From IMG/VR virus record IMGVR_UViG_3300035698_013592: DNA of 20,000 nucleotides. One strand, given 5' to 3'. Position 1 is the first letter of the stretch; every line of letters begins with the position of its first letter. The notes under the pieces are model-generated. The model saw nothing but the letters and a program-made list of their open reading frames with translations, had not been told where the DNA came from and did no database searches. This document shows positions 39 to 18,576 of the stretch, in pieces. Both the position numbers and the translations under genes were made by a program. The DNA comes from an uncultured virus (IMG/VR IMGVR_UViG_3300035698_013592) (Duplodnaviria > Heunggongvirae > Uroviricota > Caudoviricetes).

Positions 39-341
39 ATGGATATCCACAGAGATATCTTGTCCGATCACATCGCGGACAGGGTCGAAAAGGCTGATCG
101 TATCTTGGACTTCAGACAAAAAGACTACGACAAAGCGTGTTCTACTCTGAAGGACGGCGCACGTATGTTCGATGAGTGGGTTCAATGGGTAGAGGAGAAC
201 GTATTGCCCGGCCCGCCCCCTCCTGCTGATCTCGGATCGGATCCTTCGGCGTACCTTGAGCTCATGGACACTATCGACACCGTACTCGAGAAGCCCATCT
301 ACATCAAACCCGTCTTGGTTGAGGGGGTATGCATTGACTGA
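39..341 (+). CDS. Hypothetical protein (100 aa; start uncertain)
   Basis: Open frame on the same strand as its neighbours; the stop overlaps the likely start of the next gene; no recognisable motif. Confidence 0.55.
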   Translation: MDIHRDILSDHIADRVEKADRILDFRQKDYDKACSTLKDGARMFDEWVQWVEENVLPGPPPPADLGSDPSAYLELMDTIDTVLEKPIYIKPVLVEGVCID

Positions 342-1098
342 GTACAACCTCAATCTCCACAAGTCTGGGCACATCCTCAGTCTCCCGGCGCTTGAGCAGT
401 TACCTCAAGTAGCTCAGGCAGATGTAGACGGTAACCTGATCATCCACCTAGGGTTCCATGCTTTCGGCCGTACGTATTACTGTGCGTCCTACCGCGACAA
501 CGCCTTCTGGTGTTGGGTTGAGGAAAATAACAGGGGCTACGAGAAGCATGTGACTGAGAGGTACCTCATGAGTGACCCTGACCACTACATGATTCACATC
601 CATCGGCCAACACCCATCAACCTCTTGGCGCCGCATGCTGTGCGTGAGGGTGAATTACTCCGTGAAGTAGCTGTTTGTCACGACTGTGGAGCCTTGGAGG
701 GTGCGCTACACCACTCAGGCTGTGACATGGAGCGTTGTCCCTTCTGCGGTGGTCAGTTGATCAGTTGTGACTGTGTCTACAAGCTGTGGGGTCTTTATGA
801 CACAGAGAAGTACACAGAGGCCACGTCCTTTCTACCCCGACACATCTACGAGAAAGGCCTCAACGAGTTACAGTCAGAGACGTGGGATGGGATGCTGCGA
901 GCTAAGGGTCTGATCCCCTACATCCGGTATCCCAACCTCTGTTACTACTGTGGAATGAAGTGGCCGCCCATGTTCCAAGTCTCTGATGAGGAGTGGAACC
1001 GCTACATCGAGCCATGCGCACGCAGTAAGATGATCTGCCAGGTATGCTACACGCGTATCAAGCAACTCATCGATGCTGCTAAAGAACCCGAAGAGTAA
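334..1098 (+). CDS. Cys-rich putative zinc-binding phage protein
   Basis: ORF 256..1098; likely start is TTG at 334 after GAGGGGG (321-327). Contains CHDCG...HHSGCDMERCPFCGGQLISCDC plus CYYCG and CQVC motifs. Confidence 0.8.
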   Translation: MTEYNLNLHKSGHILSLPALEQLPQVAQADVDGNLIIHLGFHAFGRTYYCASYRDNAFWCWVEENNRGYEKHVTERYLMSDPDHYMIHIHRPTPINLLAPHAVREGELLREVAVCHDCGALEGALHHSGCDMERCPFCGGQLISCDCVYKLWGLYDTEKYTEATSFLPRHIYEKGLNELQSETWDGMLRAKGLIPYIRYPNLCYYCGMKWPPMFQVSDEEWNRYIEPCARSKMICQVCYTRIKQLIDAAKEPEE

Positions 1099-1116
1099 AC
1101 GTTACTATTACTTGAA
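1095..1116 (+). promoter_or_regulatory. Recurring promoter/operator motif, copy 1 (GTAAACGTTACTATTACTTGAA)
   Basis: Matches the copies at 3672, 10903 and 15669; contains a TAnnnT -10-like hexamer (TACTAT); sits at a gene end/intergenic boundary. Confidence 0.55.
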
Positions 1117-1576
1117 TATGGGTGACCGGTGAAACTCGGGATAACAACCCCAGAGGTGATCTCATGTCACTTGCAACTTAGGCCCATCTGCCACGGTAGA
1201 CTGGACCGCGAAGGCCACTCCCCCCACACCCAAGGAGGAGCAGCCTGACTTTCGTTATGCTCTGCAAGTATGGAGGCCCAAGAGAGGGCAGCCCAGCCCT
1301 GCAAAGGAAATGACGTAAATGGCTTGTAGGAAAGAGCTTAGAGACACAGTGGCATATTTCCACGGATAAACCACCGTACTCATTCTTTCTTTGGCCATGT
1401 CATGGATTGTCCTCTCAGGCCTCTCTTGCGTGTGTCGTAGCGGGTACCAGAGCATGTTTACATCGCGGTACGTTGCGGTAGATATGCGGTACATCTGGTG
1501 TTGTTAGGTAGTAACGCGTTGGTATCTTTACATGTTTCTGTGTAGACACGGCGCAGGTTGTCGTGTATCATACGGT

Positions 1577-1614
1577 TGAGGTCGCTAAGGATGTAGGAGA
1601 CTCAAGCGACCTCA
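1577..1614. other. 10-bp inverted repeat (TGAGGTCGCT-N18-AGCGACCTCA) upstream of the 1637 gene
   Basis: Arms 1577-1586 and 1605-1614 are exact reverse complements. Confidence 0.6.
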
Positions 1615-1636
1615 CAGCTAAAGAAAGGAGGATGGT

Positions 1637-2002
1637 GTGAGTGATTCACCCATCAACCCGTTTGATGACAAAGTACCAGACAACTTGATCTCTGCGGACA
1701 TCGGTGACTTTACCATCCTGATAGACGGGGATCACCTGGAACAGCGGATCGCTACGCTCAGGGCGTGGTTCGAAGAGGGTCCGCCGGAAGAGTGGACGTT
1801 TACGCAAATGCTCTCCGTTGCGGTGACTGCCACATCTGTCGGCCTGATCAGTCAAGGAGTTCCCCCTCACGTTGCCCGAAGAACCGTGATGCACCCGCTC
1901 TCGATGTATCGTATTGCCTGTAGCATGATCCGTGATAAAGAAAGGATCGTAAGACAGGCACATTCGTTGCGTGAGCCACTGGAGGACGATGACAATGGGT
2001 GA
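1637..2002 (+). CDS. Hypothetical protein (121 aa)
   Basis: GTG start with a strong RBS (AAGGAGG); overlaps the next gene. Confidence 0.8.
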   Translation: MSDSPINPFDDKVPDNLISADIGDFTILIDGDHLEQRIATLRAWFEEGPPEEWTFTQMLSVAVTATSVGLISQGVPPHVARRTVMHPLSMYRIACSMIRDKERIVRQAHSLREPLEDDDNG

Positions 2003-2672
2003 GTATACTCCCGAAGCAGCCAAAGGGATGGAAAAGATAGCGGGCATCTTGAAGTTTAACGCTGAGCGCCCGTTTGCTGACGTACAGCCTGAGGATATCC
2101 CGCTTCTGAGCGAGTTGGGTGTCAACTCCGACGAGATGTTGATTAGTATGCTCTCAGATATCTCTGACGACCCGGTGCTGCCTCAGTTACTCCGAGAAGC
2201 GGTAGCAAAATCCAAAGGGACAGCGCCGAGCGTAGGAGGCTGTTACTCTAGCGCACCGCTCTGCCCAAACTGTGGCTCGCCTAAGACATCCGGCGATCAG
2301 GAAGTGCCGGATGGGTACGGGGATGAGGACGAGATGGATGGCCCCGCAGACGACGACGTAGAAGGTAGGCGACTGTTGGGTGAGGCCCTCAAGGTTGCAC
2401 ATAGTTACCACGAGGGAGGCCTGAAGCATCTGACAGAGAAAGACAAGGAAGATGTGATGGCCCACATACTGATCGCCGTGGTCTGTGAAGCGGGGATGAA
2501 CTCGCAAACGACCGTATCGTTGGCCACGCTGGGTGCTTTTCGTGATCGGGCGCGGTTCTTGCTCGACACGGAGACGAAAGATGCACACCGTGCTATTGAC
2601 GCCTGGCTTATCGCGCTGTGGAAACAACACGGTCACCGCTACGAAGATCTTTGTGGAGACAAACAAGGATGA
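1995..2672 (+). CDS. Hypothetical protein with a CPNC motif and an acidic linker
   Basis: ORF 1971..2672; likely ATG at 1995 after GGAGG; ATGA overlap with the next gene. Confidence 0.8.
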   Translation: MGEYTPEAAKGMEKIAGILKFNAERPFADVQPEDIPLLSELGVNSDEMLISMLSDISDDPVLPQLLREAVAKSKGTAPSVGGCYSSAPLCPNCGSPKTSGDQEVPDGYGDEDEMDGPADDDVEGRRLLGEALKVAHSYHEGGLKHLTEKDKEDVMAHILIAVVCEAGMNSQTTVSLATLGAFRDRARFLLDTETKDAHRAIDAWLIALWKQHGHRYEDLCGDKQG

Positions 2673-3271
2673 CAGCTAACATCATTAGCTTTACCGCCAT
2701 CGTGACCATAGCGTTCTCTGTCTGGCGCTGCTGTCGGTCGATGAGGGTCATGCGCAATTCGATTGACATGTGGCGTGAGACAACGGAGGCCAACGGTTGT
2801 GAGTTCAGTGCGTGGGTTAGGAACTCCATCGTTACGGATAGGCAAGTGGCGCTGGACATCAACGAATTGCGAGGCATCATTGCTAGTATGGCGGAGCAGG
2901 CCAGGAATAGCTTTGGCGCGGCTGAAGCTCTCAGCATACTCGCTGTAAACAGGTTCGTTGAGCAGACGGACTGGATACAGCTGAAGGCGCAGAAGCTGTT
3001 CCTCATCAACTATGTTGACGACAACATACACGCACGAGGCATACTTCATTTCCTCGATGCGTTGCAGGACATGTTGGTTGATGGCGTCGGCATACCCCAA
3101 GAGACGATCTTTGGGCCGTTGGACGATGATGAAAACGCGAATCTCTCAGAGGAGATGACCGACGAAGCAATCGACAAACAGTCGATGGACAAGGGCCGAA
3201 CTCACACCATAGCAGAGCGTTTCGGCAGGGCCAAAGTTGAAGAAGACCAAACCGAAGCCGGGCCGGTTTAG
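2669..3271 (+). CDS. Hypothetical protein with an N-terminal membrane anchor
   Basis: ATG at 2669 overlaps the upstream TGA (ATGA); hydrophobic IISFTAIVTIAFSVW; acidic C-terminus. Confidence 0.75.
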   Translation: MTANIISFTAIVTIAFSVWRCCRSMRVMRNSIDMWRETTEANGCEFSAWVRNSIVTDRQVALDINELRGIIASMAEQARNSFGAAEALSILAVNRFVEQTDWIQLKAQKLFLINYVDDNIHARGILHFLDALQDMLVDGVGIPQETIFGPLDDDENANLSEEMTDEAIDKQSMDKGRTHTIAERFGRAKVEEDQTEAGPV

Positions 3272-3315
3272 GACTCGGCATGTACCACGTGTGACGAAGG
3301 TTGAAGGTAGAGGCT

Positions 3316-3567
3316 ATGTATAACTTGCAGTCGAGAGCTCAATCGCCTGGCCCTCCCCTGTTGGACGAGAGCCACAGCGAGCTGAGTGCGTTGGTATCAC
3401 TTCTCAGTGAGGATCTGTGTCGTAGTATGTCCCAGTACTTCTCTAAGGAGGAGTTCGACTGGAAGACATTTGCACAGGAACCACAAGTGAGACGGTATAT
3501 CGGCATGTGGCTAGCCAAGCACCCGGATAGGGCGTTGGCACGAGCTGTCATTCTGTCTGCGGCATAG
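3316..3567 (+). CDS. Hypothetical protein
   Basis: ORF 3301..3567; likely ATG at 3316 after GAGG; followed by terminator-like hairpins. Confidence 0.6.
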   Translation: MYNLQSRAQSPGPPLLDESHSELSALVSLLSEDLCRSMSQYFSKEEFDWKTFAQEPQVRRYIGMWLAKHPDRALARAVILSAA

Positions 3568-3595
3568 TTCTACGTACAGCAAGCGAACCGTATAG

Positions 3596-3660
3596 GAGCC
3601 GTCCCTCTTCGGAGGGGCGGCTCATCTTGTTACGAGGCCTTCGGGGTCAGGCTTTTCTTT
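3596..3660 (+). terminator. Tandem hairpins / intrinsic terminator
   Basis: GAGCCGTCCCTC-TTCG-GAGGGGCGGCTC (3596-3623; 12-bp stem with one G-U pair and a cUUCGg loop), then a short GCCT...AGGC stem followed by TTTTCTTT (to 3660). Confidence 0.75.
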
Positions 3661-3671
3661 AGCACTCGCCT

Positions 3672-3697
3672 GTGACGCGTTACTATACCTTGAACCC
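3672..3697 (+). promoter_or_regulatory. Recurring promoter/operator motif, copy 2, upstream of the RAMP gene (GTGACGCGTTACTATACCTTGAACCC)
   Basis: Near-identical to the 10903-10929 copy; lies between a terminator and the gene's RBS. Confidence 0.7.
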
Positions 3698-3769
3698 TGC
3701 GGCTACCCTGTTGAGTGGCCGCGACCTCCACCCGTTGGTAGCGGGTATCTTTACGAAGGGAGTACGAGC

Positions 3770-4552
3770 ATGGAGTACACGCAAGCAGAACTGGACACGC
3801 TGTTGGAGGCCGAACGCTGCAAGGCCACGATCCGCTGCAGGATGCTCCGGCCTTTGGCTGGTGGGCAGCCTGCGGGCAGGGAGGGCGTCGAAGCGTTCGT
3901 GCATTATCAGTGCAAGATCGACCCAGAGTCCGAAGAAGGTCAGGCTGCCGTCAACCGTATCCTCAAGGATGAGATCGGCGAGCGGGAGACAACCCCGGAC
4001 GGTGGCGAAGTGAACGAAGCCGAGAGCTACGGCATCAACGTGATCCGTCGCACCGAACTCGGCCCGTACATTGGCCACCACCAGCTGAAGGCTATGCTCA
4101 AGCAGGCGGCGTCTCGCCTTGGCCTATTCAAAAAGAAGATAGGCAGCAAAGGCGATCTCGTCGAGCTCGGTACCGTCAGTGCCGTCGGGCGTTCCCTGGC
4201 TGACCCCGCGCGTCCGTGGGAGGTGTACCTGTACAAGGTCGACTCCGGCGGCCCGGACGACAACGAGGAGTGCTTCGCTCCGGCGGACACTCACTTCGAC
4301 AGGCTTCAGGGCAAGGTCAGCACTCCTGCTGGGATGAAGAGTATCCAGCATGACACAGAAGTGGCTGAGGAAAGCACGCAGTTCCACTTCGAGCTTCGCT
4401 GGCCCACCAAGAAGTTGAAGGAGGAGGACATGGCGTTGGTCATCGCGGCCGCAACGCAGATCGGCATCGGGTCTTGCCTGTCGCTCGGGTACGGCCGGTT
4501 TGAGGTGATGCTGATGACGGTCGGCGAGCCCCCTGTAGTGGTGGTCGGATAG
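3770..4552 (+). CDS. Stand-alone RAMP superfamily (Cas7-like) protein; candidate Vipr-like effector
   Basis: RAMP motifs in canonical order: N-terminal strand ATIRCRMLRPLAGGQP; PYIGHHQLKAMLKQAA (cf. P-x-IPGSSLKG-x-LR); EVAEESTQFHFELRW; C-terminal Gly-rich loop GIGSCLSLGYGRFEV. RBS AAGGGAG. 260 aa. Confidence 0.88.
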   Translation: MEYTQAELDTLLEAERCKATIRCRMLRPLAGGQPAGREGVEAFVHYQCKIDPESEEGQAAVNRILKDEIGERETTPDGGEVNEAESYGINVIRRTELGPYIGHHQLKAMLKQAASRLGLFKKKIGSKGDLVELGTVSAVGRSLADPARPWEVYLYKVDSGGPDDNEECFAPADTHFDRLQGKVSTPAGMKSIQHDTEVAEESTQFHFELRWPTKKLKEEDMALVIAAATQIGIGSCLSLGYGRFEVMLMTVGEPPVVVVG

Positions 4553-4560
4553 TCTAAGCG

Positions 4561-4593
4561 TACACCCCGCAGATTAACACTCTGCGGGGTGTA
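4561..4593. other. Perfect 13-bp hairpin between the RAMP gene and the array
   Basis: TACACCCCGCAGA-TTAACAC-TCTGCGGGGTGTA; no U-tract on either strand. Confidence 0.9.
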
Positions 4594-4594
4594 T

Positions 4595-6274
4595 GTGTCG
4601 TAACCTAGCGGCAAAGCAGGGCGGAGCGTGACAAAGACGTAGCGGCAAAGCACGACAAGGCATGACCGCGCCGGACTTAGCGGCAAGTCATGGCGCCACG
4701 GTACGCTACCTAGAGGCAAAGCTGCACATTACGGCACAACGCTGTACCTAGCGGCGTGGCCCTACGACACGACACACTACGAAGCGGCATTACGGGACAG
4801 CACCAGACCTCACGGAGCGGCGCAACAAGACATGGCTGTACCACACAAAGCGGTGCAACCAGACATGACCTTACGGTATGGAGCGGCAGGACGGTACGAG
4901 ACGCAACAGCATGGAGCGGCGAAACGGAACCAAGCCATACGCTACAGCGCGGCCTCGCCTGTCCCCACCCGACGCAGCGGCAACATAACACAAAACAACA
5001 CGGAGAGGCACAACAAAACTCAACACAGCGGCGGAACCCGACGTTACTGAGCTTAACCCGACGCAGCGGCAGAACAAGGCGGGACGGAACAAGACGGAGC
5101 GGTATGACATCACGCCCCTCGACTCAGCGGCGGAGCTGAACTGAACGTCAACGGAGCGGCAATACGAGGCAGATCGAGACTGAGCAGAACGCAGCGGCAA
5201 AGCTGAACTGACCGTTACGGGACAAAGCGGCAACACAAAACAAAACGACACGGAGCGGCGAAACCAGGCATGCCTCGACTCAGCGGCGATACGAGACGAA
5301 ACGGAGCTAAACGTAACGTAGCGGCTACACAGGACAAGACTATACACATCTCAGCCTCACGAGGCGGCATGACGAAATAGAGCTGTACAGCACGGAGCGG
5401 CGAGACATCATAGTACTTCACCGTAGCGGCGTGGCAGGGCGAAACTAGACAAAGCGGCAAGGCTCGACGGTCCCGGACAAAACGCAGCGGCAAGTCAGAA
5501 CAACACAGCACGCCACAAAGCGGCAGGACAACGCGGAACTCCACGCAGCGGCACTACGGAACCGGACGCAACGGCAATATAGGACAACCCCAAACTGAGC
5601 GGCAGAACATGGCTCCACTCGACCGGGCGGCATGACATGACTTCACAGTACGAAGCGGCATAGCTGAACAGAACATCGCGGCATAACAACACAAAACTGG
5701 ACTAAGCGGTAGTACACCACTAGACGGCACAGGACCTAGCGGCAAAACAGGACAAGTCAGGACATGACCGGACTTAGCGGCAAGGCCCGACGCCACAAAA
5801 CTGAACACGGCGGCTATACATAGCACAACTCAGCGGCAGGACAGCACACCACTCAGCCTAGCGGTGAGGCCCGACGCTACGAGACGCAGCGGCACAACAA
5901 AACTTGACGGAGCATAGCGGCCTGACGGGGCCGGACCAAACGCTACAAAGCGGCTGAACAGCACCAAACTTGACCCAGCGGCTAGGCAAGACTCAACAAT
6001 ACGGAACATTACAAAGCGGCAGGGCAGGACTGGACCCAACAACACCTGGCGGCTATACACCGCCTGACGTAACGGGACTAAGCGGCAAAACAGGACCTGA
6101 CGATACGCAGCGGCAAAACCCAACTTGACATTACTCAGCGGCAGGACAAGGCTGGACGGGACACGCCCGAACCCTACTAAGCGGCGAAACCAGACGCAAC
6201 ACTGCGGCAGTACAGCACCCAACGCTACGCCACAGTACGGTGACACACGACCCGACAGAACACTACTCAACAAG
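4595..6274. repeat. Non-coding hierarchical repeat array, [GCGGC (NNNRC)3-7 NNA] x53; putative guide-RNA array
   Basis: Parsed by hand: 53 anchors from 4608 to 6237 (45 GCGGC, 4 GCGGT, 2 GAGGC, 1 ACGGC, 1 ACGGT). Anchor spacings are 23 (x5), 28 (x17), 33 (x18), 38 (x7) and 43 (x2), with three +1 exceptions (34, 29, 29). Example: GCGGC ATTAC GGGAC AGCAC CAGAC CTCAC GGA (4784-4816). Confidence 0.95.
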
Positions 6275-6283
6275 GAGAAACGC

Positions 6284-6523
6284 GTGAGGAAAACTGACGC
6301 CAAGGCGTTCGCGGCTATAGAGGCCTGGATTAGCGAGAAGAATGAGTACAGGCATGCCACTCTGGAGATCGGAGGTAAGAACTTCGAGTGTACCCTACAC
6401 GACGAGTTCCATGGGCTGCACGTACACGAGAGTGGTGCGACACCGTTCTGGGCCGCTAAGGCTGCGATAAAGAAGCACAAGACCATGGCTGCTGAGCAGT
6501 GGGGGTTGAAGTGGAGACCTTAA
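6284..6523 (+). CDS. Hypothetical protein (79 aa)
   Basis: GTG at 6284 with AAGGAG at 6272-6277; the upstream part of ORF 6125 is array sequence. Confidence 0.75.
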   Translation: MRKTDAKAFAAIEAWISEKNEYRHATLEIGGKNFECTLHDEFHGLHVHESGATPFWAAKAAIKKHKTMAAEQWGLKWRP

Positions 6524-6538
6524 CGAGAGGAGGTACCT

Positions 6539-7579
6539 ATGATCTTTGACATGCTGTGCAGGCTGCCAAAGCTGATCGAGCGCTCAAATGAACCACTGGC
6601 TCAGAGCGTGGACGTGCGTACGCTCCGGGGAGCGCTAAAGCGTTCGAAGTTGTTGCTTGTCCCTCCCCTCTTTATTGGGAAGGAGGATAAGGATTGGAAC
6701 TCACTCCCTGCCAACACAGTAGCAGAGTTCTTGCCTCCGTTCCCGGTTTCAGCGGTTGAGACTCCTTTTAATCTCACGATCTTCGATGCTTCGGGACGAA
6801 TCCCCTTCGATTTTCAAGGAGATAAGCAGCCAGAGTACGTGGCGCCGGGCACACCAGGTCTTCTTCATCGCTGGGGGTATGTTTCCTGCGCTCGTATGGC
6901 TCAGTGGATGGTGGACGAGCAGGAGGCTGATGGGGTTCTACCTGGCTTCAATGACCTGGATGTCGAGGCAGACTTACGGGCTGGGGTAGAAATTCACTTT
7001 GCCAACTTTGGGTTTATGCAGGTCTTAGGGTCTGAACCGACAGAGACTGGACGAGTGATGTTGGACGTTACGGGTATCTCGTCTCTCTCCATTCCGTTCT
7101 CTAAAGACCGAGTGTACTACTTTAACCTTGACCCTGAACAGCAGGATTTCAAAGAGGGGTCTGTTGACTCCGCTAAAGATCGTGTGCAGCGTTCCCTAGA
7201 CGGTATGTGTCTAAAGCTACGGGACTTGACAGAGCTCAACGCTCCCGACAAGTTTATCCTTGAGACCACGCCGATACTGAGCCCTAAGGCGGAGACGCGC
7301 TTGTGTCGTAGTGAGCAGAAGGTTGGTCACATCAGGCGATCGACCGAGCGCCCTGTCTACACGATACTGAAGCCGCACGACATTCGTAAGAAGATGGGTG
7401 TCTCAACCCCCACAGGGAGGAAGATAGGCTCGCACGAGCGACGAGGGCACCCTCGTACGTATCGCAGTGCCGTATTCAAGAACATGAAGGGCAAGACCGT
7501 GTGGATTGAGTCGACGTGGGTCGGCTGCTCCGAGAAGATCGAAGGCAACAAGCGGTACAAGGTACTGCTGGACAAATGA
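6539..7579 (+). CDS. Phage hypothetical protein with a C-terminal HxRRGHxR motif
   Basis: RBS GAGGAGG; the C-terminus SHERRGHPRTY...KTVWIESTWVG matches a basic motif I recall from many phage/mobile-element proteins. Confidence 0.85.
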   Translation: MIFDMLCRLPKLIERSNEPLAQSVDVRTLRGALKRSKLLLVPPLFIGKEDKDWNSLPANTVAEFLPPFPVSAVETPFNLTIFDASGRIPFDFQGDKQPEYVAPGTPGLLHRWGYVSCARMAQWMVDEQEADGVLPGFNDLDVEADLRAGVEIHFANFGFMQVLGSEPTETGRVMLDVTGISSLSIPFSKDRVYYFNLDPEQQDFKEGSVDSAKDRVQRSLDGMCLKLRDLTELNAPDKFILETTPILSPKAETRLCRSEQKVGHIRRSTERPVYTILKPHDIRKKMGVSTPTGRKIGSHERRGHPRTYRSAVFKNMKGKTVWIESTWVGCSEKIEGNKRYKVLLDK

Positions 7580-7590
7580 GGAGGACGCCG

Positions 7591-8049
7591 ATGCTGAACT
7601 GGAGTATTAAGCCTCACCCGTGGTTCCAGGATGTTGTGCGGTGGTCGCTTCAGAGAGTGTGTGTGGAGTTGCAGATACCAAAATGTATCAACTCGACGCC
7701 GTTCTCCGACACTTTGGGGCTCGACCCAGTAAGTGACTCTGCGCTTAACTGCATTTGTGCTGAGCTTCTGCGCGGATCGGAGCACGCACTGATGCATAAG
7801 CCTACTGGATACCAGTTTCTCGTTCTTGACCGCGTGTTGCGGTGGTCGCTCAGTGAGTGCGAGCAGGTCGCGGATGGTGCGATAGCTCGTATTCGTGATC
7901 GCTACTTCTGGGACAGAGACTACGAACAGTACTGTGGCGAGTACCCGCTTTATAACGACCTTACGGTGGGGATAAGTGGCGAGGGGCCGAACAAAAACCA
8001 CAACGACCCTGCCGAAGAGTTGAGCAAGCTGCTCTACTCTGACGTATGA
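7591..8049 (+). CDS. Hypothetical protein
   Basis: ORF 7516..8049; ATG at 7591 follows GAGGAGG (alternative start 7576 by ATGA overlap). Confidence 0.7.
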   Translation: MLNWSIKPHPWFQDVVRWSLQRVCVELQIPKCINSTPFSDTLGLDPVSDSALNCICAELLRGSEHALMHKPTGYQFLVLDRVLRWSLSECEQVADGAIARIRDRYFWDRDYEQYCGEYPLYNDLTVGISGEGPNKNHNDPAEELSKLLYSDV

Positions 8050-8062
8050 AAGGAGATGCACG

Positions 8063-8494
8063 ATGGCCGTAGTGTATTCGTATGCAGGGTGGGGTCTCAA
8101 GCTACCCCATAGTGAGTTGACGGTCCGGCGTAGCCACCCAGCCTGTAAGCATGACTTCCCTTCAGGTAGCAACTTCTGCCCAGAGTGCGGGACGAAGAGC
8201 ATATGGGCGAGCGAGGTACTTCGCTGTGGCGTGAATTTGGTCGCCCAGGAGTACAACTCGCTGCAGCTCATCTCAGGGTATAAGTTTGGGGAGGACAAAT
8301 ACGACGTATTCATCGGTATCTTTGACTCCATCGGTATCTTTGACTCCATGCCTGACTGTACGCTGCCGAAGAATGCTTACGAGGCTGTTACGGAGAATGG
8401 GCTCGGAGGCAAACACATTCGTGATGAGATCAGCGATGAACTACGGGCGTTAGGCGAGTGGGGTTTCTGGCTCTTCACGGTCTGGAAACCATAA
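8063..8494 (+). CDS. Zinc-ribbon protein, paralog family A, copy 1
   Basis: RBS AAGGAG; SYAGWG...CKH...NFCPECG...DVFIGIF...GEWGFW. Confidence 0.85.
   Translation: MAVVYSYAGWGLKLPHSELTVRRSHPACKHDFPSGSNFCPECGTKSIWASEVLRCGVNLVAQEYNSLQLISGYKFGEDKYDVFIGIFDSIGIFDSMPDCTLPKNAYEAVTENGLGGKHIRDEISDELRALGEWGFWLFTVWKP
8311..8346 (+). repeat. Perfect 18-bp in-frame tandem duplication (CATCGGTATCTTTGACTC x2)
   Basis: 8311-8328 is identical to 8329-8346; encodes IGIFDS-IGIFDS. Confidence 0.95.
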
Positions 8495-8522
8495 CCGAGG
8501 GCAACACTAGAGGAGACACAGG

Positions 8523-8957
8523 ATGTCAACATCAGTAATTTCGTACATCGGGTGGGGCTACAAGCTACCCAAGAGTGCACTGACAACAATACGTACCTCC
8601 CCGGGTTGCGGGCACGACGAGGTCGCCGAAGGCAACAAGTTCTGCCCGGAGTGTGGCAACAAGGGACCCTGCGAACAGGAGGTACCCGTAGACGGCGTGG
8701 ACATGGACGATGGGATGTACAAAGGTAGCCTGCAGATCGTTGTTGGGCAGGGCTTTGGATATGACAACGATGACGTATTCATCGGTATCTTCGAGGCTAT
8801 CAAGTCTGACGGCAACGCTACCTCGCCAGAGAACCTCTGGAGCCTGGGTAGGGGTGACAACGGGCGTGAAAGATGCGAGCAGATTGCGGCCGTAGTTACC
8901 AACGAGCTGGCCGAAAAGGGTGAGTGGGGCTTCTGGCACTTTTTGGTTTGGGATTGA
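8523..8957 (+). CDS. Zinc-ribbon protein, paralog family A, copy 2
   Basis: RBS GAGGAG; SYIGWG...CGH...KFCPECG...DVFIGIF...GEWGFWHF. Confidence 0.85.
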   Translation: MSTSVISYIGWGYKLPKSALTTIRTSPGCGHDEVAEGNKFCPECGNKGPCEQEVPVDGVDMDDGMYKGSLQIVVGQGFGYDNDDVFIGIFEAIKSDGNATSPENLWSLGRGDNGRERCEQIAAVVTNELAEKGEWGFWHFLVWD

Positions 8958-9193
8958 TGATGGGTTGGACTACAAACTTAGCGTTCAAGGAATTCGTGGA
9001 AGGTAAACTCATTGAGCGCGTTGTCATCAAGGGGAGAGCTGAAATTACCCTGAAGTTTGACGACGGCACCTCTCTCGTGCTTACTGCGATACAAGACGAC
9101 ACACAGCGATGTAACGCGTGTGGCGTACATCATCCAGAGATGGCCCTTCTGCAGAACCCATTCAAGAAGGACGGAAAATCAGGCTACATATAA
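8957..9193 (+). CDS. Hypothetical protein with a CxxC motif
   Basis: TGATG overlap with the upstream gene; CNACGVHH. Confidence 0.65.
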   Translation: MMGWTTNLAFKEFVEGKLIERVVIKGRAEITLKFDDGTSLVLTAIQDDTQRCNACGVHHPEMALLQNPFKKDGKSGYI

Positions 9194-9206
9194 AGGAGCG
9201 ACCTCT

Positions 9207-9512
9207 ATGGCAAAAGTACGCTGTAAGGCGTTTGTAGATCGAACGAACTGGTCTTCGTTCATTCACGGGACCATACCTGACCCGTCTGGCACGTGTGATC
9301 GTGCAGCGCGGGTTTCGGTTAACGGAATACATCTGTGTTTGGTGCATACGGGCAAAGCAGCTGAGCTCTTGGCGCGTAGGTCGCCGGGATTAGTGTGTAC
9401 CGTGAGCATTGAGATCGTTAGACCAGAGGCTTCTCCGGCGTCACGTCATCATCTGGTAGCGGATTCCCTGATAGGCCTGAGAGGCATAGATGAGGGAGCT
9501 AGACTGTGCTGA
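9207..9512 (+). CDS. Hypothetical Cys/His protein
   Basis: ATG at 9207 after AAGGAG; C...C...HLCLVH pattern. Confidence 0.7.
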   Translation: MAKVRCKAFVDRTNWSSFIHGTIPDPSGTCDRAARVSVNGIHLCLVHTGKAAELLARRSPGLVCTVSIEIVRPEASPASRHHLVADSLIGLRGIDEGARLC

Positions 9513-9784
9513 AGATCATCACGTATAACTTGTACAACGTCAACAATTGCCGTATCGGTTTACCTCGGGGTGCGCGGGTTATAACCGTGACAAAGCGTGA
9601 AGGGTTTGATCCGGTGCTCAGTGTGTTGGCTGATCCGGATCAGCCTAAAGTGCCGTATTACGTTGAGTGTTGCAGGAGGAATAACTGGGTGACTCAAGAG
9701 CTTGTGGATGTTCCGTTCATCGGTAGCGCCATCGAAGACGGGCATCCGATCTACGTTTTTGGTGGTACACCCGTCAACAAGTAG
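9506..9784 (+). CDS. Small phage protein, paralog family B (DUF7352-like, tentative)
   Basis: GTG start after GAGGGAG; MLKIITYNL...IGLPRGARVITV...VLADPDQP...FIGS...IYVF aligns by eye with 14149..14412. Confidence 0.7.
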   Translation: MLKIITYNLYNVNNCRIGLPRGARVITVTKREGFDPVLSVLADPDQPKVPYYVECCRRNNWVTQELVDVPFIGSAIEDGHPIYVFGGTPVNK

Positions 9785-9809
9785 TCAGGGTCAACAGTTG
9801 GAGGTTGTA

Positions 9810-10229
9810 ATGAAAGGCATTAGATCGTACTGCGGGTGGGGCTTTCGTGTGTCGGGCAATATCATTCACGACGACGTATACACACCCACCTGCGAACATG
9901 ACGATGCGGAGAGGGACGAGAAGTTTTGCCCTACGTGCGGCATGGAGCAGGAGTTCTGTCCAGCCGAGGGTGATCCCTTCGGCATAGACCAGGGGGGTAA
10001 GGTTGTGAACTTATTTACTGTTCACTCCATAGTTCACCAGAAGCTGGGTAAAGCGTACTTCGTCGGATTGTTTGACGAGATGGTGGTGAGCGAGAAGACG
10101 ACCGATCATATACGTCTGGTCACGCAGAGCGTATCCGATGTGCTCCTCGTCATACGCAAGATGCCGAAGGCTATCGTTGACGACGGGTCGTTTGGGCTGT
10201 GGCATTTCTGCGTGCCTTTCGACGAATAG
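9810..10229 (+). CDS. Zinc-ribbon protein, paralog family A, copy 3 (diverged)
   Basis: ATG at 9810 after GGAGG; SYCGWG...CEH...KFCPTCG...YFVGLF...GSFGLWHF. Confidence 0.8.
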   Translation: MKGIRSYCGWGFRVSGNIIHDDVYTPTCEHDDAERDEKFCPTCGMEQEFCPAEGDPFGIDQGGKVVNLFTVHSIVHQKLGKAYFVGLFDEMVVSEKTTDHIRLVTQSVSDVLLVIRKMPKAIVDDGSFGLWHFCVPFDE

Positions 10230-10246
10230 GAGACAAGGAGAGACTG

Positions 10247-10570
10247 TTGGGATATTACATTGAGACTGATGGCGTGTATGACAAGGCCGTATTCATCTGT
10301 AGAGAGTATGGTGCGAAGTAGATATGCCTGAGAGACGTACGTGAGCTCATCAAAGACCCGACCAAGGCGATTATCTCTGTGATCGACAACGGCCGCGTTG
10401 AGGCAGCTGCGTTCGTGTACAACGAGGACGAACTTGATGCGTTTGACCACCGTAGTGACCGACGCCCCAAGACATGGCTGGTGATGGATCGCACGAAGGC
10501 GTGTGAGCTCACCGGTTATGTGGACGAGAAACAAGGAGACGCAGCAGATGCCAGCCCCGATAAAGGCTAA
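10247..10570 (+). pseudogene. Small phage gene interrupted by an in-frame TAG (10319-10321)
   Basis: AAGGAG (10235-10240) plus TTG at 10247 gives MGYYIETDGVYDKAVFICREYGAK*ICLRDV..., in frame with ORF 10379..10570 (IDNGRVEAAAFVYNEDE...DRRPKTWL). Confidence 0.65.
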
Positions 10571-10850
10571 GATGCTCGTCACAGAGGCTGAGCGTAAGTT
10601 CTTGCTCCGACTGCTTGAGGACACTCCACAAGAGGATGAAACCAGGGCGCTGCACGAGCAGCTAACCCGGCTGTGTATCATACCTCCGCTGAATCTTACC
10701 GATGGGGAGCTGGCGGCGCTGCGTGAGGCTGCGGATCACCGAGCTGGCGTGTTCTATGCCCAGAGTGATGCGTGGGCGGTACACGGGCACAGCGTACACG
10801 GTAAGTTAGTTAACGAGCAACTTCGTCGAACTGGAGAACACAGCGTGTAG
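10548..10850 (+). CDS. Hypothetical protein
   Basis: ATG at 10548 after AAGGAG; followed by a terminator. Confidence 0.7.
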   Translation: MPAPIKAKMLVTEAERKFLLRLLEDTPQEDETRALHEQLTRLCIIPPLNLTDGELAALREAADHRAGVFYAQSDAWAVHGHSVHGKLVNEQLRRTGEHSV

Positions 10851-10858
10851 TTAGGTAT

Positions 10859-10892
10859 ACCCGGCCCATTTGGGCCGGGTTTCCTTTTCTTT
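10859..10892 (+). terminator. Intrinsic terminator
   Basis: ACCCGGCCC-ATTT-GGGCCGGGT followed by TTCCTTTTCTTT. Confidence 0.85.
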
Positions 10893-10902
10893 ACTTTAGT
10901 TA

Positions 10903-10929
10903 GTAATGCGTTACTATAACTTGGAACCC
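10903..10929 (+). promoter_or_regulatory. Recurring promoter/operator motif, copy 3 (GTAATGCGTTACTATAACTTGGAACCC)
   Basis: Same terminator-motif-RBS layout as at 3596-3770. Confidence 0.7.
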
Positions 10930-10971
10930 AGGCGTATAACCCTTTTTTGTGTCCATTGATAGGAGAAGTAC

Positions 10972-11412: not shown

Positions 11413-11496
11413 CGCTAAGGCGGATCGGTGGTTACGAAAGGTATACCGGAGTCCTTGAACATCCGGGCACTTCTGTTCGTACACTAGGAGATCATT

Positions 11497-12631: not shown

Positions 12632-14065
12632 TCACAAGTTCCACGATACGGGGCCAGCACGGAACAGATGTGTGAAGGGAATCTTCGTGAATCGCTTCGG
12701 CGGTTGGCCGGACACGAAGAGGATTCGGCGTTGAAGTCGACCTACCTCTACACACATCTGTTCCAGGCCCTCGTGAAGGGTTTGTATGTCCTTGGACGTG
12801 AAGGCCGAGCTGATCTCGCTGTAGGGATCGTAGCTGCGTCCACTGGGTTCTGCGTCGAATCCAGCTAGGTAGATAGCGTCGCAGCCGGTGTGTAGAGCAG
12901 TCGCATAGGCTATCGCCTCCGCCGTATGTACCTCAAATGGCTTGAGATCGTCCGCTGGGAAGCCGTGGAAGCCCTCAGCCTGCAAACGGGTGCCAGGGGC
13001 CACAATACGCGCTCCAAGCTGCTGAAGGTCCTTATATGCGTCTTGTGTAGACGATTCGGAGAGACATCCGTAGGTAGGCGCGAAGCCCCAGGTGGAGGTA
13101 CAGAGGTACGCGTCGTCCACCGCGATGGTGATTTCATTACGTAACTCGCTTAGCATCAAGCGGTTAAGTGACAATCCAGACCGTATAATGAAGCATCGCT
13201 GCCCCTTATGGATGTTCTTGGTTCTACTAAGGGCTGGAAGTGTCGGCGTATCTCTTGTTAGGTCATCAAGGTTAGCGAACGGCAACACCTTGAGGTTTTG
13301 TGCCTTTGATGCGTTGAAGAGTTGGAATCCACACTGCTTGGCGTACTCTTGGAGGAGGATGAACGTGCAGGTAGAGATGTCTGCCGCAGCTTGGCCATGT
13401 GTCCGCTTACCCTTTTGAAGAGGTACTACGGACGTCTCCGTGTTATGATCCTGGCCTACGATGTAGATCTGGTTACAGCCAAGGTACATCGCAAGCGGGA
13501 CGGCCGTATCGGACACCACGTAGCCCCCGGATCCTATGAGGTGTGGGCGCTCGTCCAAGAAGTGGTTGACGTGGTCGCATTGTGATGCGCGGGTATTGGA
13601 AGCTGGGTACTGGACAGTCATCACATGGTTCGGGGGTAGTTTCCCTTTGAACTCATCAGCGACGTAGCTGGATACAACGAGTTGAGAGTCGCTGTACGCT
13701 AGGGAGATGTCCAGCAGCTTTGGGCAGAATTTGGGGTTACCGTCTGTGATCACATTGTAGGTAGGCGCCCACCCATAGGTCTCGCCAAGATACTTGGGTA
13801 TCCCGTTGACACCAATTGTGATCTCGTTGCGGAGCCAGTCGATGTCTTGTTCTTTGAGGGAGGGGCCAGAGGCAATGATGAAGCAACGCTGTCCATCGTG
13901 GCGTGCTTTGAGACATCGTGTTCGCTCGGTAGTCATACCCAGTGACTCGAGCCCTACTTCGACTTCCCCCTCTTTCCGCCGCCGCTCCAAGAATCCTTTC
14001 AGGCGCAGCTCGAAGGTATCCCGCATACGCTCAGTTTTGCGCTTGGCTCTCTCAACATAATCCAT
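12632..14065 (-). CDS. Tandem DUF115 / MAF-like (MptE-like, glycosyltransferase-related) domain protein
   Basis: HDGQRCFIIASGPSL...LRNEITIGVN...LAMYLGCNQIYIVGQD, and a second copy HKGQRCFIIRSGLSL...LRNEITIAVD...ALHTGCDAIYLAGFD. Start uncertain (14065 or 14113; the ORF is open to 14158). Confidence 0.8.
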   Translation of the reverse strand: MDYVERAKRKTERMRDTFELRLKGFLERRRKEGEVEVGLESLGMTTERTRCLKARHDGQRCFIIASGPSLKEQDIDWLRNEITIGVNGIPKYLGETYGWAPTYNVITDGNPKFCPKLLDISLAYSDSQLVVSSYVADEFKGKLPPNHVMTVQYPASNTRASQCDHVNHFLDERPHLIGSGGYVVSDTAVPLAMYLGCNQIYIVGQDHNTETSVVPLQKGKRTHGQAAADISTCTFILLQEYAKQCGFQLFNASKAQNLKVLPFANLDDLTRDTPTLPALSRTKNIHKGQRCFIIRSGLSLNRLMLSELRNEITIAVDDAYLCTSTWGFAPTYGCLSESSTQDAYKDLQQLGARIVAPGTRLQAEGFHGFPADDLKPFEVHTAEAIAYATALHTGCDAIYLAGFDAEPSGRSYDPYSEISSAFTSKDIQTLHEGLEQMCVEVGRLQRRILFVSGQPPKRFTKIPFTHLFRAGPVSWNL

Positions 14066-14148
14066 TGTGGTACACTCAGAGGAACATCGTTTGTGGTGGG
14101 CGCCGCCCGCCATGATGCTTTTGATTCTAACATAAGAAGGGTCTGTAG

Positions 14149-14412
14149 ATGAAGGCAATTTGGAAGTTTCCGTTTGATATCACGGACAACATCACCATCG
14201 AGATGCCGCGAGGGGCAATTCCGCTTCAGGTGGCTGCCCAGAACGACGTTGCGTGCATGTGGGCCTGTGTTGACACCGAGGCGCCCAAGGAATCCCGCAG
14301 GTTCAAGCTGAGAGGCACAGGGCATAACGCGGACACCATCGACCCGAGCAAGCACGTGGGTACCCTTTTTTTGTACTCTGGCGCCATCGTCTTTCACATC
14401 TTCGACGCTTGA
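14149..14412 (+). CDS. Small phage protein, paralog family B (DUF7352-like, tentative)
   Basis: MKAIWKFPF...IEMPRGAIPLQVAAQ...CMWACVD...RRFKLRGTGH...HVGT...VFHIFD, a pattern I recognise from a widespread phage family. Confidence 0.8.
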   Translation: MKAIWKFPFDITDNITIEMPRGAIPLQVAAQNDVACMWACVDTEAPKESRRFKLRGTGHNADTIDPSKHVGTLFLYSGAIVFHIFDA

Positions 14413-15668: not shown

Positions 15669-15686
15669 GTAACGGCGTTACTATAG
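15669..15686 (+). promoter_or_regulatory. Recurring promoter/operator motif, copy 4 (GTAACGGCGTTACTATAG)
   Basis: Intergenic, about 20 nt upstream of the sigma region-4 gene. Confidence 0.65.
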
Positions 15687-15707: not shown

Positions 15708-16376
15708 ATGGAAGTATTCAGCGTACCAGAGGAAGCTAAAGAGGCCATCGCGTTTGACGAGGGAAGTGAAGTGCTACTCAATGCGGTAGCGACGCTAACG
15801 CACAGAGAACGCGAGGTTCTTTATCTCCGTACGGGCATCACAACGGGTGAAGTGCTTACGTTGAGGGAGGTTGGGCGCAGGTTCAGCGTCACTGTTGAGC
15901 GTATCCGCCAGATACAGGTTAAGGCACTGTATAAGCTGCAGCGCCCAGGCTGTGCCAGGACTGTTGAGCCTTTCGTAATGGATCTACGTAAGGGTCCTGT
16001 TGCGTTAGGTTGGAAGTCTCGCCCCTACGACCACTACGGGCAGTATCTTTCGGGTCACAGGGAGATCCGCGAGTTCATTGAGTGTAGCGCCTGTACGCTC
16101 AGGAACTACATCGAGCGGGGTCTTCCGCTTGATAGGTACAACTACCACGTTTACATAACGAAACTGGCTGTTGTGGATTGGCTGGAGCAGGAAGCAGATA
16201 TATCTGACGAGCGTTATGGATGGGGCATTCGTCAGTTTGCTGAGTCGACCAGGAAGAAGTTCACCGAGGAGTCAGATCATGAGCAATACGTCGACGCAGA
16301 AGACCAGGAGTACAGTGGATGCTGTAATCCGAAAATTCTTCAGCTACCACCGGGAACGAGCGCTCCGATTGCGTGA
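15708..16376 (+). CDS. Sigma70 region-4 domain protein with a second HTH (no region 2)
   Basis: LTHREREVLYLRTGITTGEVLTLREVGRRFSVTVERIRQIQVKALYKLQRP closely matches RpoD region 4; GHREIREFIECSACTLRNYIERGLP...VVDWL resembles a Xis/MerR-type HTH. Confidence 0.85.
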   Translation: MEVFSVPEEAKEAIAFDEGSEVLLNAVATLTHREREVLYLRTGITTGEVLTLREVGRRFSVTVERIRQIQVKALYKLQRPGCARTVEPFVMDLRKGPVALGWKSRPYDHYGQYLSGHREIREFIECSACTLRNYIERGLPLDRYNYHVYITKLAVVDWLEQEADISDERYGWGIRQFAESTRKKFTEESDHEQYVDAEDQEYSGCCNPKILQLPPGTSAPIA

Positions 16377-16497
16377 GATTGCCGAGGGCGTCGTTTTGGC
16401 GCCCCGGCTGGTCTTCGCCTGCTTACAACGTCTACGAGGCCGCAACCTGATCCGCTACGACAATCGCGGCGGCTGGTGGGCGGAGGAAGAGTGCTAA
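16279..16497 (+). CDS. Small winged-helix protein
   Basis: ATG at 16279 after GAGGAG; LRLREIAEGVVLAPRLVFACLQRLRGRNLIRY...GGWW; overlaps the upstream gene by 98 nt. Confidence 0.65.
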   Translation: MSNTSTQKTRSTVDAVIRKFFSYHRERALRLREIAEGVVLAPRLVFACLQRLRGRNLIRYDNRGGWWAEEEC

Positions 16498-16508
16498 GGA
16501 GAGCTACC

Positions 16509-16850
16509 ATGGCTGGATGTTCAGTCGAGTACGATGCACAGTGTGATGACACGGCTAAAAGAAAGTGCGTCATCTGCCGGAGATGGACGTGTAACAGTTG
16601 TTCAGTCTTCAAGGACTTACCGCGCAAGTTGGACGCGTGTATCTGCATGGGCTGTATCGAGGAGGCCGAGCGTTACGAAACATATGCGGACCTCTATGCT
16701 TTGGCGCAGGCCAACATGTTTGAGTCAAATCCGAATGAGACGCCGTTCTTAGACGACAACATACTCGGGTTTGATGCGTGGGTAGGGCTGGGACCTCGCG
16801 GAGGTCAAAGACAGCAAAGGGATCGTGAGATGGCGTTCTTTAGAGACTGA
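16509..16850 (+). CDS. Cys-rich zinc-finger-like protein
   Basis: RBS AAGGAG; C...C...CVIC...CNSC...CMGC. Confidence 0.7.
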   Translation: MAGCSVEYDAQCDDTAKRKCVICRRWTCNSCSVFKDLPRKLDACICMGCIEEAERYETYADLYALAQANMFESNPNETPFLDDNILGFDAWVGLGPRGGQRQQRDREMAFFRD

Positions 16851-16859
16851 GGAGAGAAC

Positions 16860-17099
16860 ATGAATCGGTATACGCTTACTGTTGTTGTTGGTTGTATCGT
16901 TTGTGTTGTGGGCATCGCGGTTCTTTGGGTCACGGGACAAAGAGACATCATTCAGCTCTGGACCCCCGCGTGTTGGTTGGCCATGGCCATGGCGGGCTTG
17001 TGGTACAAGTTCGGCACGCACGAGCATAAGTTCGAGTCGACGACTGACATCGCTATGGCATCGGCCATCGTTGCCAGGTATACAAGGGAGGAAACATGA
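16860..17099 (+). CDS. Small membrane protein
   Basis: RBS GAGGAG; two hydrophobic segments; ATGA overlap with the Nudix gene. Confidence 0.7.
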   Translation: MNRYTLTVVVGCIVCVVGIAVLWVTGQRDIIQLWTPACWLAMAMAGLWYKFGTHEHKFESTTDIAMASAIVARYTREET

Positions 17100-17686
17100 A
17101 GCACGATAGCACTGACCGACAGCTCATTGCTGAAGGTAAGCACCTGCAGCTGGATACTGTGCATGTCGTCCGTGAGGATGGCAAGAAGTTTGAGTGGGAA
17201 GTCTGCAGCCGCAGGAACAACCAGATAGCCGTTGTGGTTGTCGCCACGTCGGCGAAGGGCATCATTTTGGTTGAGCAGTACCGCGCCGCTGCGGGCTGTC
17301 ATGTCATCGAATTCCCTGCGGGCATGATCGACGTTGGCGAGACCCCCAGGGAAGCCGCTGTGCGCGAATTACGCGAAGAGACAGGATATATCGGCAGCAG
17401 TCTTGGATTTTTACAGTCAGGACCTGACGCCAGTATCCCGGTATTCTCGTCGTCAGGACTGACGAATGAACGCGTGGTATTCGTTCGTTTGGGTGTTGAC
17501 GACAAGCATAGGACCGCCGTGGACTTTCAAGGGTCCGAGGACATTACGACCCACCATGTTCAGTGGGGGGGCCTATCCGACTTTATTCAGGATTCGGTTT
17601 CCTGTGGTAGCGCGCTCAGTGCGCGCGTCTACGCTTTCCTTGTTGGTCGCAAGTACCTGCAATGGCACGGGGCTAAGGAGCAATGA
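17096..17686 (+). CDS. Nudix hydrolase, ADP-ribose pyrophosphatase (NudF)-like
   Basis: Complete Nudix box GMIDVGETPREAAVRELREETGY, preceded by ILVEQYR...IEFPAG and followed by SSGLTNE and SEDI. Confidence 0.92.
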   Translation: MKHDSTDRQLIAEGKHLQLDTVHVVREDGKKFEWEVCSRRNNQIAVVVVATSAKGIILVEQYRAAAGCHVIEFPAGMIDVGETPREAAVRELREETGYIGSSLGFLQSGPDASIPVFSSSGLTNERVVFVRLGVDDKHRTAVDFQGSEDITTHHVQWGGLSDFIQDSVSCGSALSARVYAFLVGRKYLQWHGAKEQ

Positions 17687-18576
17687 TGATCAACAGCTTT
17701 GAAGGGAAGTACAGATTCTTGTCGAACTTCCACCTGTGTACGATCGTCTTTGAAGGGGCGGTCTACTCGTCGGTGGAACACGCCTACCAAGCATGGAAGA
17801 CCCTCTCGGCCAGCGAGAGAACGCGTATCATGCTTGCCACAACGCCCGGGATGGTGAAGAGGTTCGGACAGGAAGTGACGTTACGGCCGGACTACAGCGA
17901 CGAGACGCGCATCAATGCGATGTATGGGTTTCTCTTGCAGAAGTTTAACAGAACACCATTGTTGCAGCGCCTGCAAGGCACGAGCCCCGAAGACATCGTA
18001 GAGGGCAATACGTGGGGCGATACCTTCTGGGGTGTCTGCGACGGTGACGGGCGTAACCATATGGGCAGGCTGCTCATGAGGATACGTGACGAGCTTGCTG
18101 AGTCTTGTCCGATAGGCAACTACTCGGTTGGATGGGAGTCGGCGCCGAATCACCGCGTTGAGCTCGGCGTTACCGCCCCGGATGGGCAAGAGGTCTACGT
18201 CTGCGACCTGGACGGCACAGACGAGTTCTGCAGGGAGATCTGCCACGCTCTGGACATGATGCAGGACGAGCGACGCACGCTTGTAGACGCACTACGTGAT
18301 GATACGTTTTGTGCCTACTGCGGGGAAAAGTATCCCCATGGAACGCCTAAGCATAGCAACGCGTTACTGACGGAGCACATCAAGAAGTGCGAGAAGCATC
18401 CGGCGTTTGGGATGAATCGTACGTTAAATGCGATTCACTGTTACGTCACCAACGCGACGTGTACCGTGCCGGGATGTCAAGGACCTCTTGCGCCGGACCC
18501 AAGCGACATGTGTGAGATGTGCAGCGTGATCAAACACGTACGTCTGCTCATCGAGAAGCAAGGAGTTCTGAAATGA
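17683..18576 (+). CDS. NADAR (YbiA-like) domain protein with a C-terminal Cys/His extension
   Basis: FLSNF...YSSVEHAYQAWK...QKF...IVEGNTWGDTFWGV...GRNHMGRLLMRIR; the C-terminus has CAYCG...HIKKCEKHP and further Cys pairs. Confidence 0.92.
   Translation: MMINSFEGKYRFLSNFHLCTIVFEGAVYSSVEHAYQAWKTLSASERTRIMLATTPGMVKRFGQEVTLRPDYSDETRINAMYGFLLQKFNRTPLLQRLQGTSPEDIVEGNTWGDTFWGVCDGDGRNHMGRLLMRIRDELAESCPIGNYSVGWESAPNHRVELGVTAPDGQEVYVCDLDGTDEFCREICHALDMMQDERRTLVDALRDDTFCAYCGEKYPHGTPKHSNALLTEHIKKCEKHPAFGMNRTLNAIHCYVTNATCTVPGCQGPLAPDPSDMCEMCSVIKHVRLLIEKQGVLK

Follow-up and report, generated by a model that had tools for sequence, protein, structure and literature searches.

The DNA analysed here, referred to as the window, is a stretch of 20,000 nucleotides from an uncultured virus of the Caudoviricetes (IMG/VR record IMGVR_UViG_3300035698_013592), and our subject is a compact locus within it that joins a gene for a Cas7-like protein to a long array of five-nucleotide repeats. 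All elements of the locus lie on the + strand. An intrinsic terminator (3596..3623), with a 12-pair stem that includes nine GC pairs and a T-rich tail, closes the upstream gene and forms the 5′ border of the cassette. It is followed by a promoter-like motif (3658..3697; ..GTGAC-GCGTTACTATAcCTTGAA), a vipr-like gene of 260 amino acids (3770..4552), a hairpin (4558..4596) and the array (4607..~6270, 1.6 kb). A first-pass annotation of this DNA, made from the sequence without database searches, had listed the same elements. The terminator, the promoter motif and the gene are present as described, as is a period-5 array 3′ of the gene with two constant and three variable nucleotides and anchors; the hairpin has 16 pairs rather than 13, and the array ~52 units rather than 53. 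We regard the locus as a likely VIPR-type RNA-guided phage system, made up of a divergent Vipr and a long array of guide units.

The product of the vipr-like gene is a Cas7-like RAMP built on one RRM; it has an alpha-helical insertion, a thumb hairpin and a G-loop, GIGSCLSLGYGRF, which the first-pass annotation had also picked out. The AlphaFold2 (AF2) model, with 36 homologues in the alignment, has a predicted local distance difference test score (pLDDT) of 90.5 and a predicted template modelling score (pTM) of 0.83, and shows a long beta-hairpin at residues 174-199 (the thumb) and the G-loop at residues 232-243. Foldseek, which had been suggested as a check of 3770..4552 against Cas7, Csm3 and Csf2, returned Cas7-family subunits (type VII Cas7, Csm3, Cmr4, Csf2) at E ~1e-8. 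VIA-align against Cas7/Csm3 gave a Z of 12.4 with ~170 residues aligned. The top matches in a viral structure library were uncharacterised viral proteins and a siphovirus ‘Cas system-associated RAMP superfamily protein’. At the level of sequence, the 260-aa protein had no match in Pfam or PHROGs, PADLOC and NCBIfam gave only sub-threshold Cmr6 matches confined to the G-loop, and the family profile matched none of the PDB chains by sequence. The 95 homologues are all unnamed or ‘hypothetical’, mostly metagenomic, and none carries a Pfam domain; a profile search retrieved 606 cluster representatives at E <= 1e-3, 101 of them at E <= 1e-30. The earlier remark that no cas1/2/3/5/6/8/10 gene was recognised agrees with Pfam on 16 open reading frames (ORFs) of the window and PADLOC on 21, the sub-threshold Cmr6 signal on the RAMP itself being the sole one. 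The window holds neither a CRISPR repeat-spacer array nor further cas genes, the features by which a class 1 CRISPR-Cas system would be recognised.

VIPR systems consist of lone Vipr RAMPs, mostly phage-borne, with vrRNAs of YNNGG repeats; seven types and recognition of DNA by a 1-nt-skip rule are set out in the available portions of the discovery preprint (bioRxiv 10.64898/2026.04.26.720920). In the SUSP1 complex one protomer spans each 5-nt repeat and three DNA bases are engaged per protomer, and GGY is buried by D177, W178, R138 and R179 of Vipr, as given in the accessible part of a second preprint (bioRxiv 10.64898/2026.04.26.720927). Alignment of family profiles with hhalign (the window family, A1, against the SUSP1 Vipr family, A3) gave 86% with an E of 5e-6 over 138 columns, which include helix-1, the thumb region and the G-loop. 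The resemblance to VIPR pointed out in the first-pass annotation is borne out, since the preprints exist and the profile comparison ties this family to that of SUSP1 Vipr. Two intermediate proteins from the profile search were tried as a bridge to the SUSP1 family and rejected (70% and 1.4%).

The array (4607..6208) is a punctuated series of pentamers with ~52 AGCGGC anchors, in which each unit reads GGC + (NNN-A/G-C)n + NNAGC and contains 4-8 pentamers. The last unit (6209..6270) is open-ended: six good pentamers are succeeded by decaying ones that extend into the ribosome-binding site of the next gene (GTG at 6275), and the closing anchor is absent. Forty-nine anchors are exact (GCGG[CT]) and three are degenerate (AGAGGC twice, AACGGC once), the latter lying in the correct register inside the three long gaps, so that anchors and units number ~52. 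Of 48 anchor spacings, 42 equal 8+5n, or 3 mod 5 (binomial p 1.5e-23); a 1-nt indel is present in three units. The anchor word is concentrated here on one strand, as 49 of the 92 GCGG[CT] words on the + strand of the window fall inside 4600..6210, against 2 of 40 for the reverse complement. Among 199 internal pentamers, position 4 is A (0.79) or G (0.16) and position 5 is C (0.98), while positions 1-3 vary almost to the maximum, G being favoured (0.40) at position 3. AC is repeated five bases on in 113 of 225 cases inside the array compared with 63 of 1138 outside it, and 4601..6301 is the sole segment of the window with a lag-5 excess >0.15. The region 3400..6700 is found in contigs of four salt-lake metagenome runs (2017-2019) with three single-base differences and no gain or loss of a unit; the array is stable. 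The units at 4642 and 5739 have near-identical variable triplets, with one inserted pentamer each and different ‘constant’ fourth bases, and look like two guides against variants of one target.

The association of gene and array extends to relatives. We compared 41 loci whose encoded homologues are 35-61% identical. A lag-5 periodic segment touches the homologue gene in most of them. GCGGC-anchored 8+5n arrays adjoin the homologue in 28 of the 41, the linkage that the first-pass annotation had proposed to check, and they are on the strand of the gene every time, downstream in 20 loci and upstream in the remainder. By eye, five further loci (L001, L023, L024, L025, L041) have short arrays or variant anchors. 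Six loci stop <=124 nt past the gene, and the downstream side is therefore not judgeable there. The grammar is conserved across loci while the triplets differ: in 291 guides from 32 other loci, position 4 is A (0.82) or G (0.14), position 5 is C (0.80) or T (0.20), and the third variable base is G at 0.42. Linkage of gene and array on the same strand is a conserved property of this family. Among the variants, the low-GC locus L023 (940..1386) has AGCAGT anchors with NNNAT units, and in L024 (900..1601) the anchors are AGAGGC/AGTGGC; which pyrimidine occupies the constant step seems to follow from genome GC content. A small ORF family found just 5′ of upstream-type arrays (L020 3938..4198, L025 434..775, L028 909..1292) is the sole accessory candidate seen, and the window lacks it. 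In L038 (2700..2870) and L029 (1940..1975) the array is followed by a strong + strand terminator-like hairpin; the L038 hairpin stands between an upstream array and the gene, and that array may be a separate transcription unit.

The 16-pair hairpin between the vipr-like gene and the array folds at -29.8 kcal/mol (z -5.75; none of 200 shuffles as stable) and has no U-tract after it. It is not conserved in relatives: in 14 of 20 downstream arrays the array begins <=10 nt from the stop codon or overlaps it, leaving no space. The promoter-like motif has a core, CGTTACTATA, that occurs four times in the window (1100..1109, 3678..3687, 10909..10918 and 15676..15685), always on the + strand and ahead of ORFs, where 0.59 copies are expected; at least four were seen in 1 of 200 shuffles. 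From this distribution, the motif is probably a phage-specific type of promoter. A common form of it (..GTAAC-GCGTTACTATAaCTTGAA..) precedes four + strand genes or gene blocks. The copy at 15676..15685 sits 23 nt upstream of a sigma-70-region-4 gene (15708..16376). Contigs in two metagenome runs have 37 nt (3651..3687) alone in common with the window, their flanks being unrelated on both sides; the promoter-like element thus seems to be used by another genome in these lakes as well. A sigma-70 consensus scan of 3300..6700 gave no promoter, and no Rfam family matched in that interval.

We infer a mechanism in which + strand transcription would start at the phage promoter motif (~3678), pass through the gene and continue along the array, giving an RNA of the form 5′-GCGGC-(NNN-A-C)n-NNA-3′ repeated ~52 times. 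By analogy with SUSP1, one protomer would occupy each 5-nt step, with the purine-pyrimidine A-C step buried (GGY in SUSP1) and the variable bases presented. Because the AGCGGC anchor adds 3 nt and breaks the 5-nt register, we propose that each unit of 4-8 pentamers would form its own short filament or be cut out. Loaded filaments would then bind to corresponding DNA in competing mobile elements and keep it from being transcribed. A bolder version, which we put forward with considerable doubt, is that this branch of VIPR reads all three variable bases and that Vipr recognises the anchor, yielding ~52 short, independent guides with no need of Cas6, ribozyme or structured tail. If the SUSP1 geometry of three DNA nucleotides per protomer is kept, targets may be contiguous, without a skipped base. 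As an argument rather than evidence, a unit of 4-8 pentamers would specify only 8-16 bases if two are read at each step and 12-24 if three are read. Substitutions between related guide pairs (198 aligned pentamers) number 19 at N1, 22 at N2, 16 at N3, 21 at position 4 and 9 at position 5. Change at the third variable base does not exceed that at the first two, and this base behaves like a guide position, which does not by itself prove that it is read.

Several results weigh against assigning the locus to VIPR, or against the mechanism as proposed. Homology to SUSP1 Vipr is remote, and the BLASTP pair covers the G-loop only (E 0.049). In that loop, GVGDWRPRFGRF in SUSP1 Vipr, the GGY-contacting residues D177, W178 and R179 align with S235, C236 and L237 of the 260-aa protein, and the SUSP1 thumb arginine (R138) has no conserved counterpart in its family. 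Base recognition is therefore not simply transferable from SUSP1; to judge from the aligned sequences, the replacements fit a different constant motif. An invariable structured 3′ tail is absent from the array, where the 6-nt anchor alone stands between units and no Rfam family matched. Two of the 41 relatives (L015, L016) have no array despite 6 kb on each side of the gene. All-against-all ORF clustering of the 41 loci and the window found no conserved accessory (vap) gene and no neighbour common to more than three loci, the larger clusters being only frames that overlap vipr or the arrays. Searches for targets were also negative. When 42 well-formed window guides were compared with the array-masked window, allowing 0-3 skipped bases, the mismatch distributions equalled those of order-shuffled guides, and 191 family guides of at least 15 nt, searched against ~245 kb of related loci, did not outperform their shuffled or reversed versions. 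Viral contigs scanned for exact matches to four 0-skip patterns and one 1-skip pattern from window units gave a single match (L048), a purine-rich 20-mer inside a primase-like ORF of a low-GC phage with the codon register off; this is probably a chance match. Finally, the reverse complement of the array, (G-Y-NNN)n, corresponds exactly to the published YNNNG form, whereas on the gene strand A would have to replace the conserved G.

The last of these points leads to the alternative in which the system is VIPR as proposed but the guides come from the - strand, as (G-Y-NNN)n followed by GCCGC, a YNNNG type with the anchor as a short 3′ tail. The motif itself is not decisive for the strand, since the reverse complement of a purine-pyrimidine step is again purine-pyrimidine. 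Read on the - strand, the array shows G with a frequency of 0.98 next to a pyrimidine with one of 0.95 (T 0.79 and C 0.16), like the conserved G and free pyrimidine of GGY, and the arrangement matches the alternative ‘YNNNG’ named in the methods of the discovery preprint, the section on which this point draws. The units would also end in the anchor, as the SUSP1 repeat tract is followed by a 3′ tail, and the open-ended unit at 6209..6270 would merely be without a 5′ boundary. Against this, the close spacing of 14 of the 20 downstream arrays to the stop codon leaves no space for an antisense promoter or terminator, and four of nine upstream arrays end 20-39 nt ahead of the start codon, with space for a ribosome-binding site only. 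Terminator-like hairpins after the array were seen on the gene strand in 2 of 29 cases and on the other strand in none of 29. The GenBank record of SUSP1 contains a 195-aa Vipr and eight YNNGG matches, all on one strand, that of vipr, which supports the + strand by comparison. In the window, the genes from 256 to 12630 are all + strand ORFs, and as the promoter motif at 3678 does not recur before 10909, + strand genes past the array would need read-through. Guide RNA most likely comes from the gene (+) strand, and we consider a - strand origin unlikely, if the most serious of the alternatives.

The remaining alternatives concern what the array does. Filaments might act on RNA instead of DNA and, for instance, prevent translation from starting on host or rival transcripts. 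Purines prevail at the variable bases of the window array (A 0.35, G 0.32), the two triplets next to each anchor on its 3′ side are A/G-rich, several joined triplets resemble a Shine-Dalgarno sequence plus ATG, and SUSP1 Vipr filaments can pair with single-stranded RNA in vitro, although RNA targets gave mostly incomplete filaments, in the part of the SUSP1 preprint available to us (bioRxiv 10.64898/2026.04.26.720927). The purine bias is weaker in the 32 other loci (A 0.26, C 0.22, G 0.33, T 0.20), however, and an estimate from position frequencies indicates that base composition roughly accounts for the count and register of ATG triplets. In some arrays A-rich first pentamers also follow a final anchor that has no guide after it, and these pentamers may therefore belong to the anchor. 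For the first two of these reasons the idea that the guides are directed at ribosome-binding sites was dropped as a general claim, and we think action on RNA improbable. It would be very surprising if the array were not a store of guides at all but a set of iterons bound by protein at the DNA level, or a coding or satellite repeat travelling with the gene. Long ORFs do cross it on both strands, for example 4756..5139 (+) and 5830..6486 (-), because its + strand is T-poor. A period of five with a 3-nt shift at each anchor is incompatible with a reading frame, though, and grammar is conserved between loci that differ in their triplets. The partner protein has an RNA-binding RAMP fold, and the near-identity of the array in the four metagenome runs argues against an unstable satellite. 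A VIPR-type system with guides on the gene strand is the likely reading of the locus.

The ORFs of the window are mostly orphans, with PHROG matches that include a sigma factor, a late activator, a nudix protein and phrog_1017. No structural phage gene was found within the window, and megablast of the window against a phage collection gave no match; one relative lies on a 215-kb IMG/VR contig. Downstream of the locus are two adjacent paralogous zinc-ribbon genes (8063..8494 and 8523..8957, +) with repeat families of 71-73% identity, the first of which contains a perfect 18-nt tandem duplication (8311..8346). The sole convincing minus-strand gene of the window (12632..14158) encodes a 508-aa protein that contains an MptE-like domain (E 6e-18) and gave a weak sialyltransferase-like match in PHROGs. 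Genes for a sigma-70 region-4 protein, a NUDIX hydrolase and a NADAR-domain protein form a cluster on the + strand (15708..18576). Such genes are typical accessory genes of large phages.

VIPR was described in 2026, and the GGY/NN form alone has been tested experimentally. The present locus belongs to a sizeable branch, the 606 representatives retrieved by the profile search, which departs from the tested type in having two fixed and three varied bases, ~52 guides in 1.6 kb and apparently no need of an accessory gene. If the third base is read, the code would differ from the dinucleotide-plus-skip rule, and short guides with 12-24 specified bases would serve as programmable units of high density and small size. 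For the element that divides a long transcript into guides, the conserved 6-nt anchor offers a simple candidate.

Comparison with known systems places the locus most closely to VIPR type II of Escherichia phage SUSP1 (Vipr, vrRNA and vap1). In both, a small RAMP carrying a G-loop and a thumb occurs on its own, and 5-nt repeats, RNA genes in SUSP1 and putative ones here, adjoin it on the strand of the gene; both are cas-free, the SUSP1 locus is phage-borne and the window locus probably so, and the proteins have remote profile homology. The constant part is GGY (3 nt) with two variable bases in SUSP1, whereas the window array has A-Y (2 nt) and three variable bases. SUSP1 has a few RNAs of ~100 nt, with 9-16 repeats and a pseudoknotted tail, in contrast to the ~52 AGCGGC-bounded units of 4-8 pentamers in the window. 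SUSP1 carries a vap gene and none was found at the window locus; Vipr is 195 aa in SUSP1 and 260 aa here, and the GGY-contacting residues are not kept. Neither strand of the array fits the GGY/NN consensus, the gene strand reading NNN-A/G-C and the other G-Y-NNN. The first-pass annotation was right that the grammar, with two constant and three variable bases and anchors, differs from GGY/NN. The class 1 Cas7 backbone subunits (Csm3, Cmr4, Csf2 and type VII Cas7) are the best structural matches and have the RRM core, thumb and G-loop in common with the window protein, but are only 11-15% identical to it. Their step is 6 nt, as opposed to the 5-nt step of the array at the window locus, where a CRISPR array and other cas genes are absent.

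Divergent VIPR grammars have been reported. NNNGG, YNNNG and NNNNG are given as alternative repeats in the discovery preprint, which also names ‘staggered’ arrays, and its authors allow ‘a related consensus’ beside GGY/NN (bioRxiv 10.64898/2026.04.26.720920); our comparison with these types rests on its methods text and the legends to figs S17-S18. As described there, the YNNNG type resembles the window array in having two fixed and three variable positions if the latter is read on the - strand, and units of ‘staggered’ arrays likewise abut without a long tail. The fixed purine of the alternative repeats is G, whereas on the gene strand of the window it is A. Two NCBI members of the family with accessions are on contigs of <20 kb, a size that the discovery pipeline, by the same methods text, discarded. 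A later preprint, in the portion available, describes divergent VIPR arrays that fall into 21 clusters and have units such as GAC/NN and CAC/NN beside Vipr-like folds (bioRxiv 10.64898/2026.10.21.760802). These have an A-C constant step and an adjoining Vipr-like fold, as here, and the lean of position 3 to G (0.40 in the window, 0.42 in the family) is a further likeness to GAC/NN; the A-C constant step is therefore already in print. By that account the survey units have three fixed and two free bases in runs exactly 5 nt apart, unlike the window array, in which position 3 is nearly free and the 3-nt shift at the anchor breaks the runs every 4-8 units. The earlier suggestion of a possibly undescribed subtype was overstated, as NNNGG, YNNNG, NNNNG, ‘staggered’, GAC/NN and CAC/NN arrays appear in the published portions cited above. 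Since alternative grammars and ‘staggered’ arrays are already in print, the locus is best placed as a variant of the VIPR systems published in 2026 and not as a new kind of system. The branch to which it belongs, which apparently lacks an accessory gene, is one that has a unit of two fixed and three variable bases and short anchors instead of tails.

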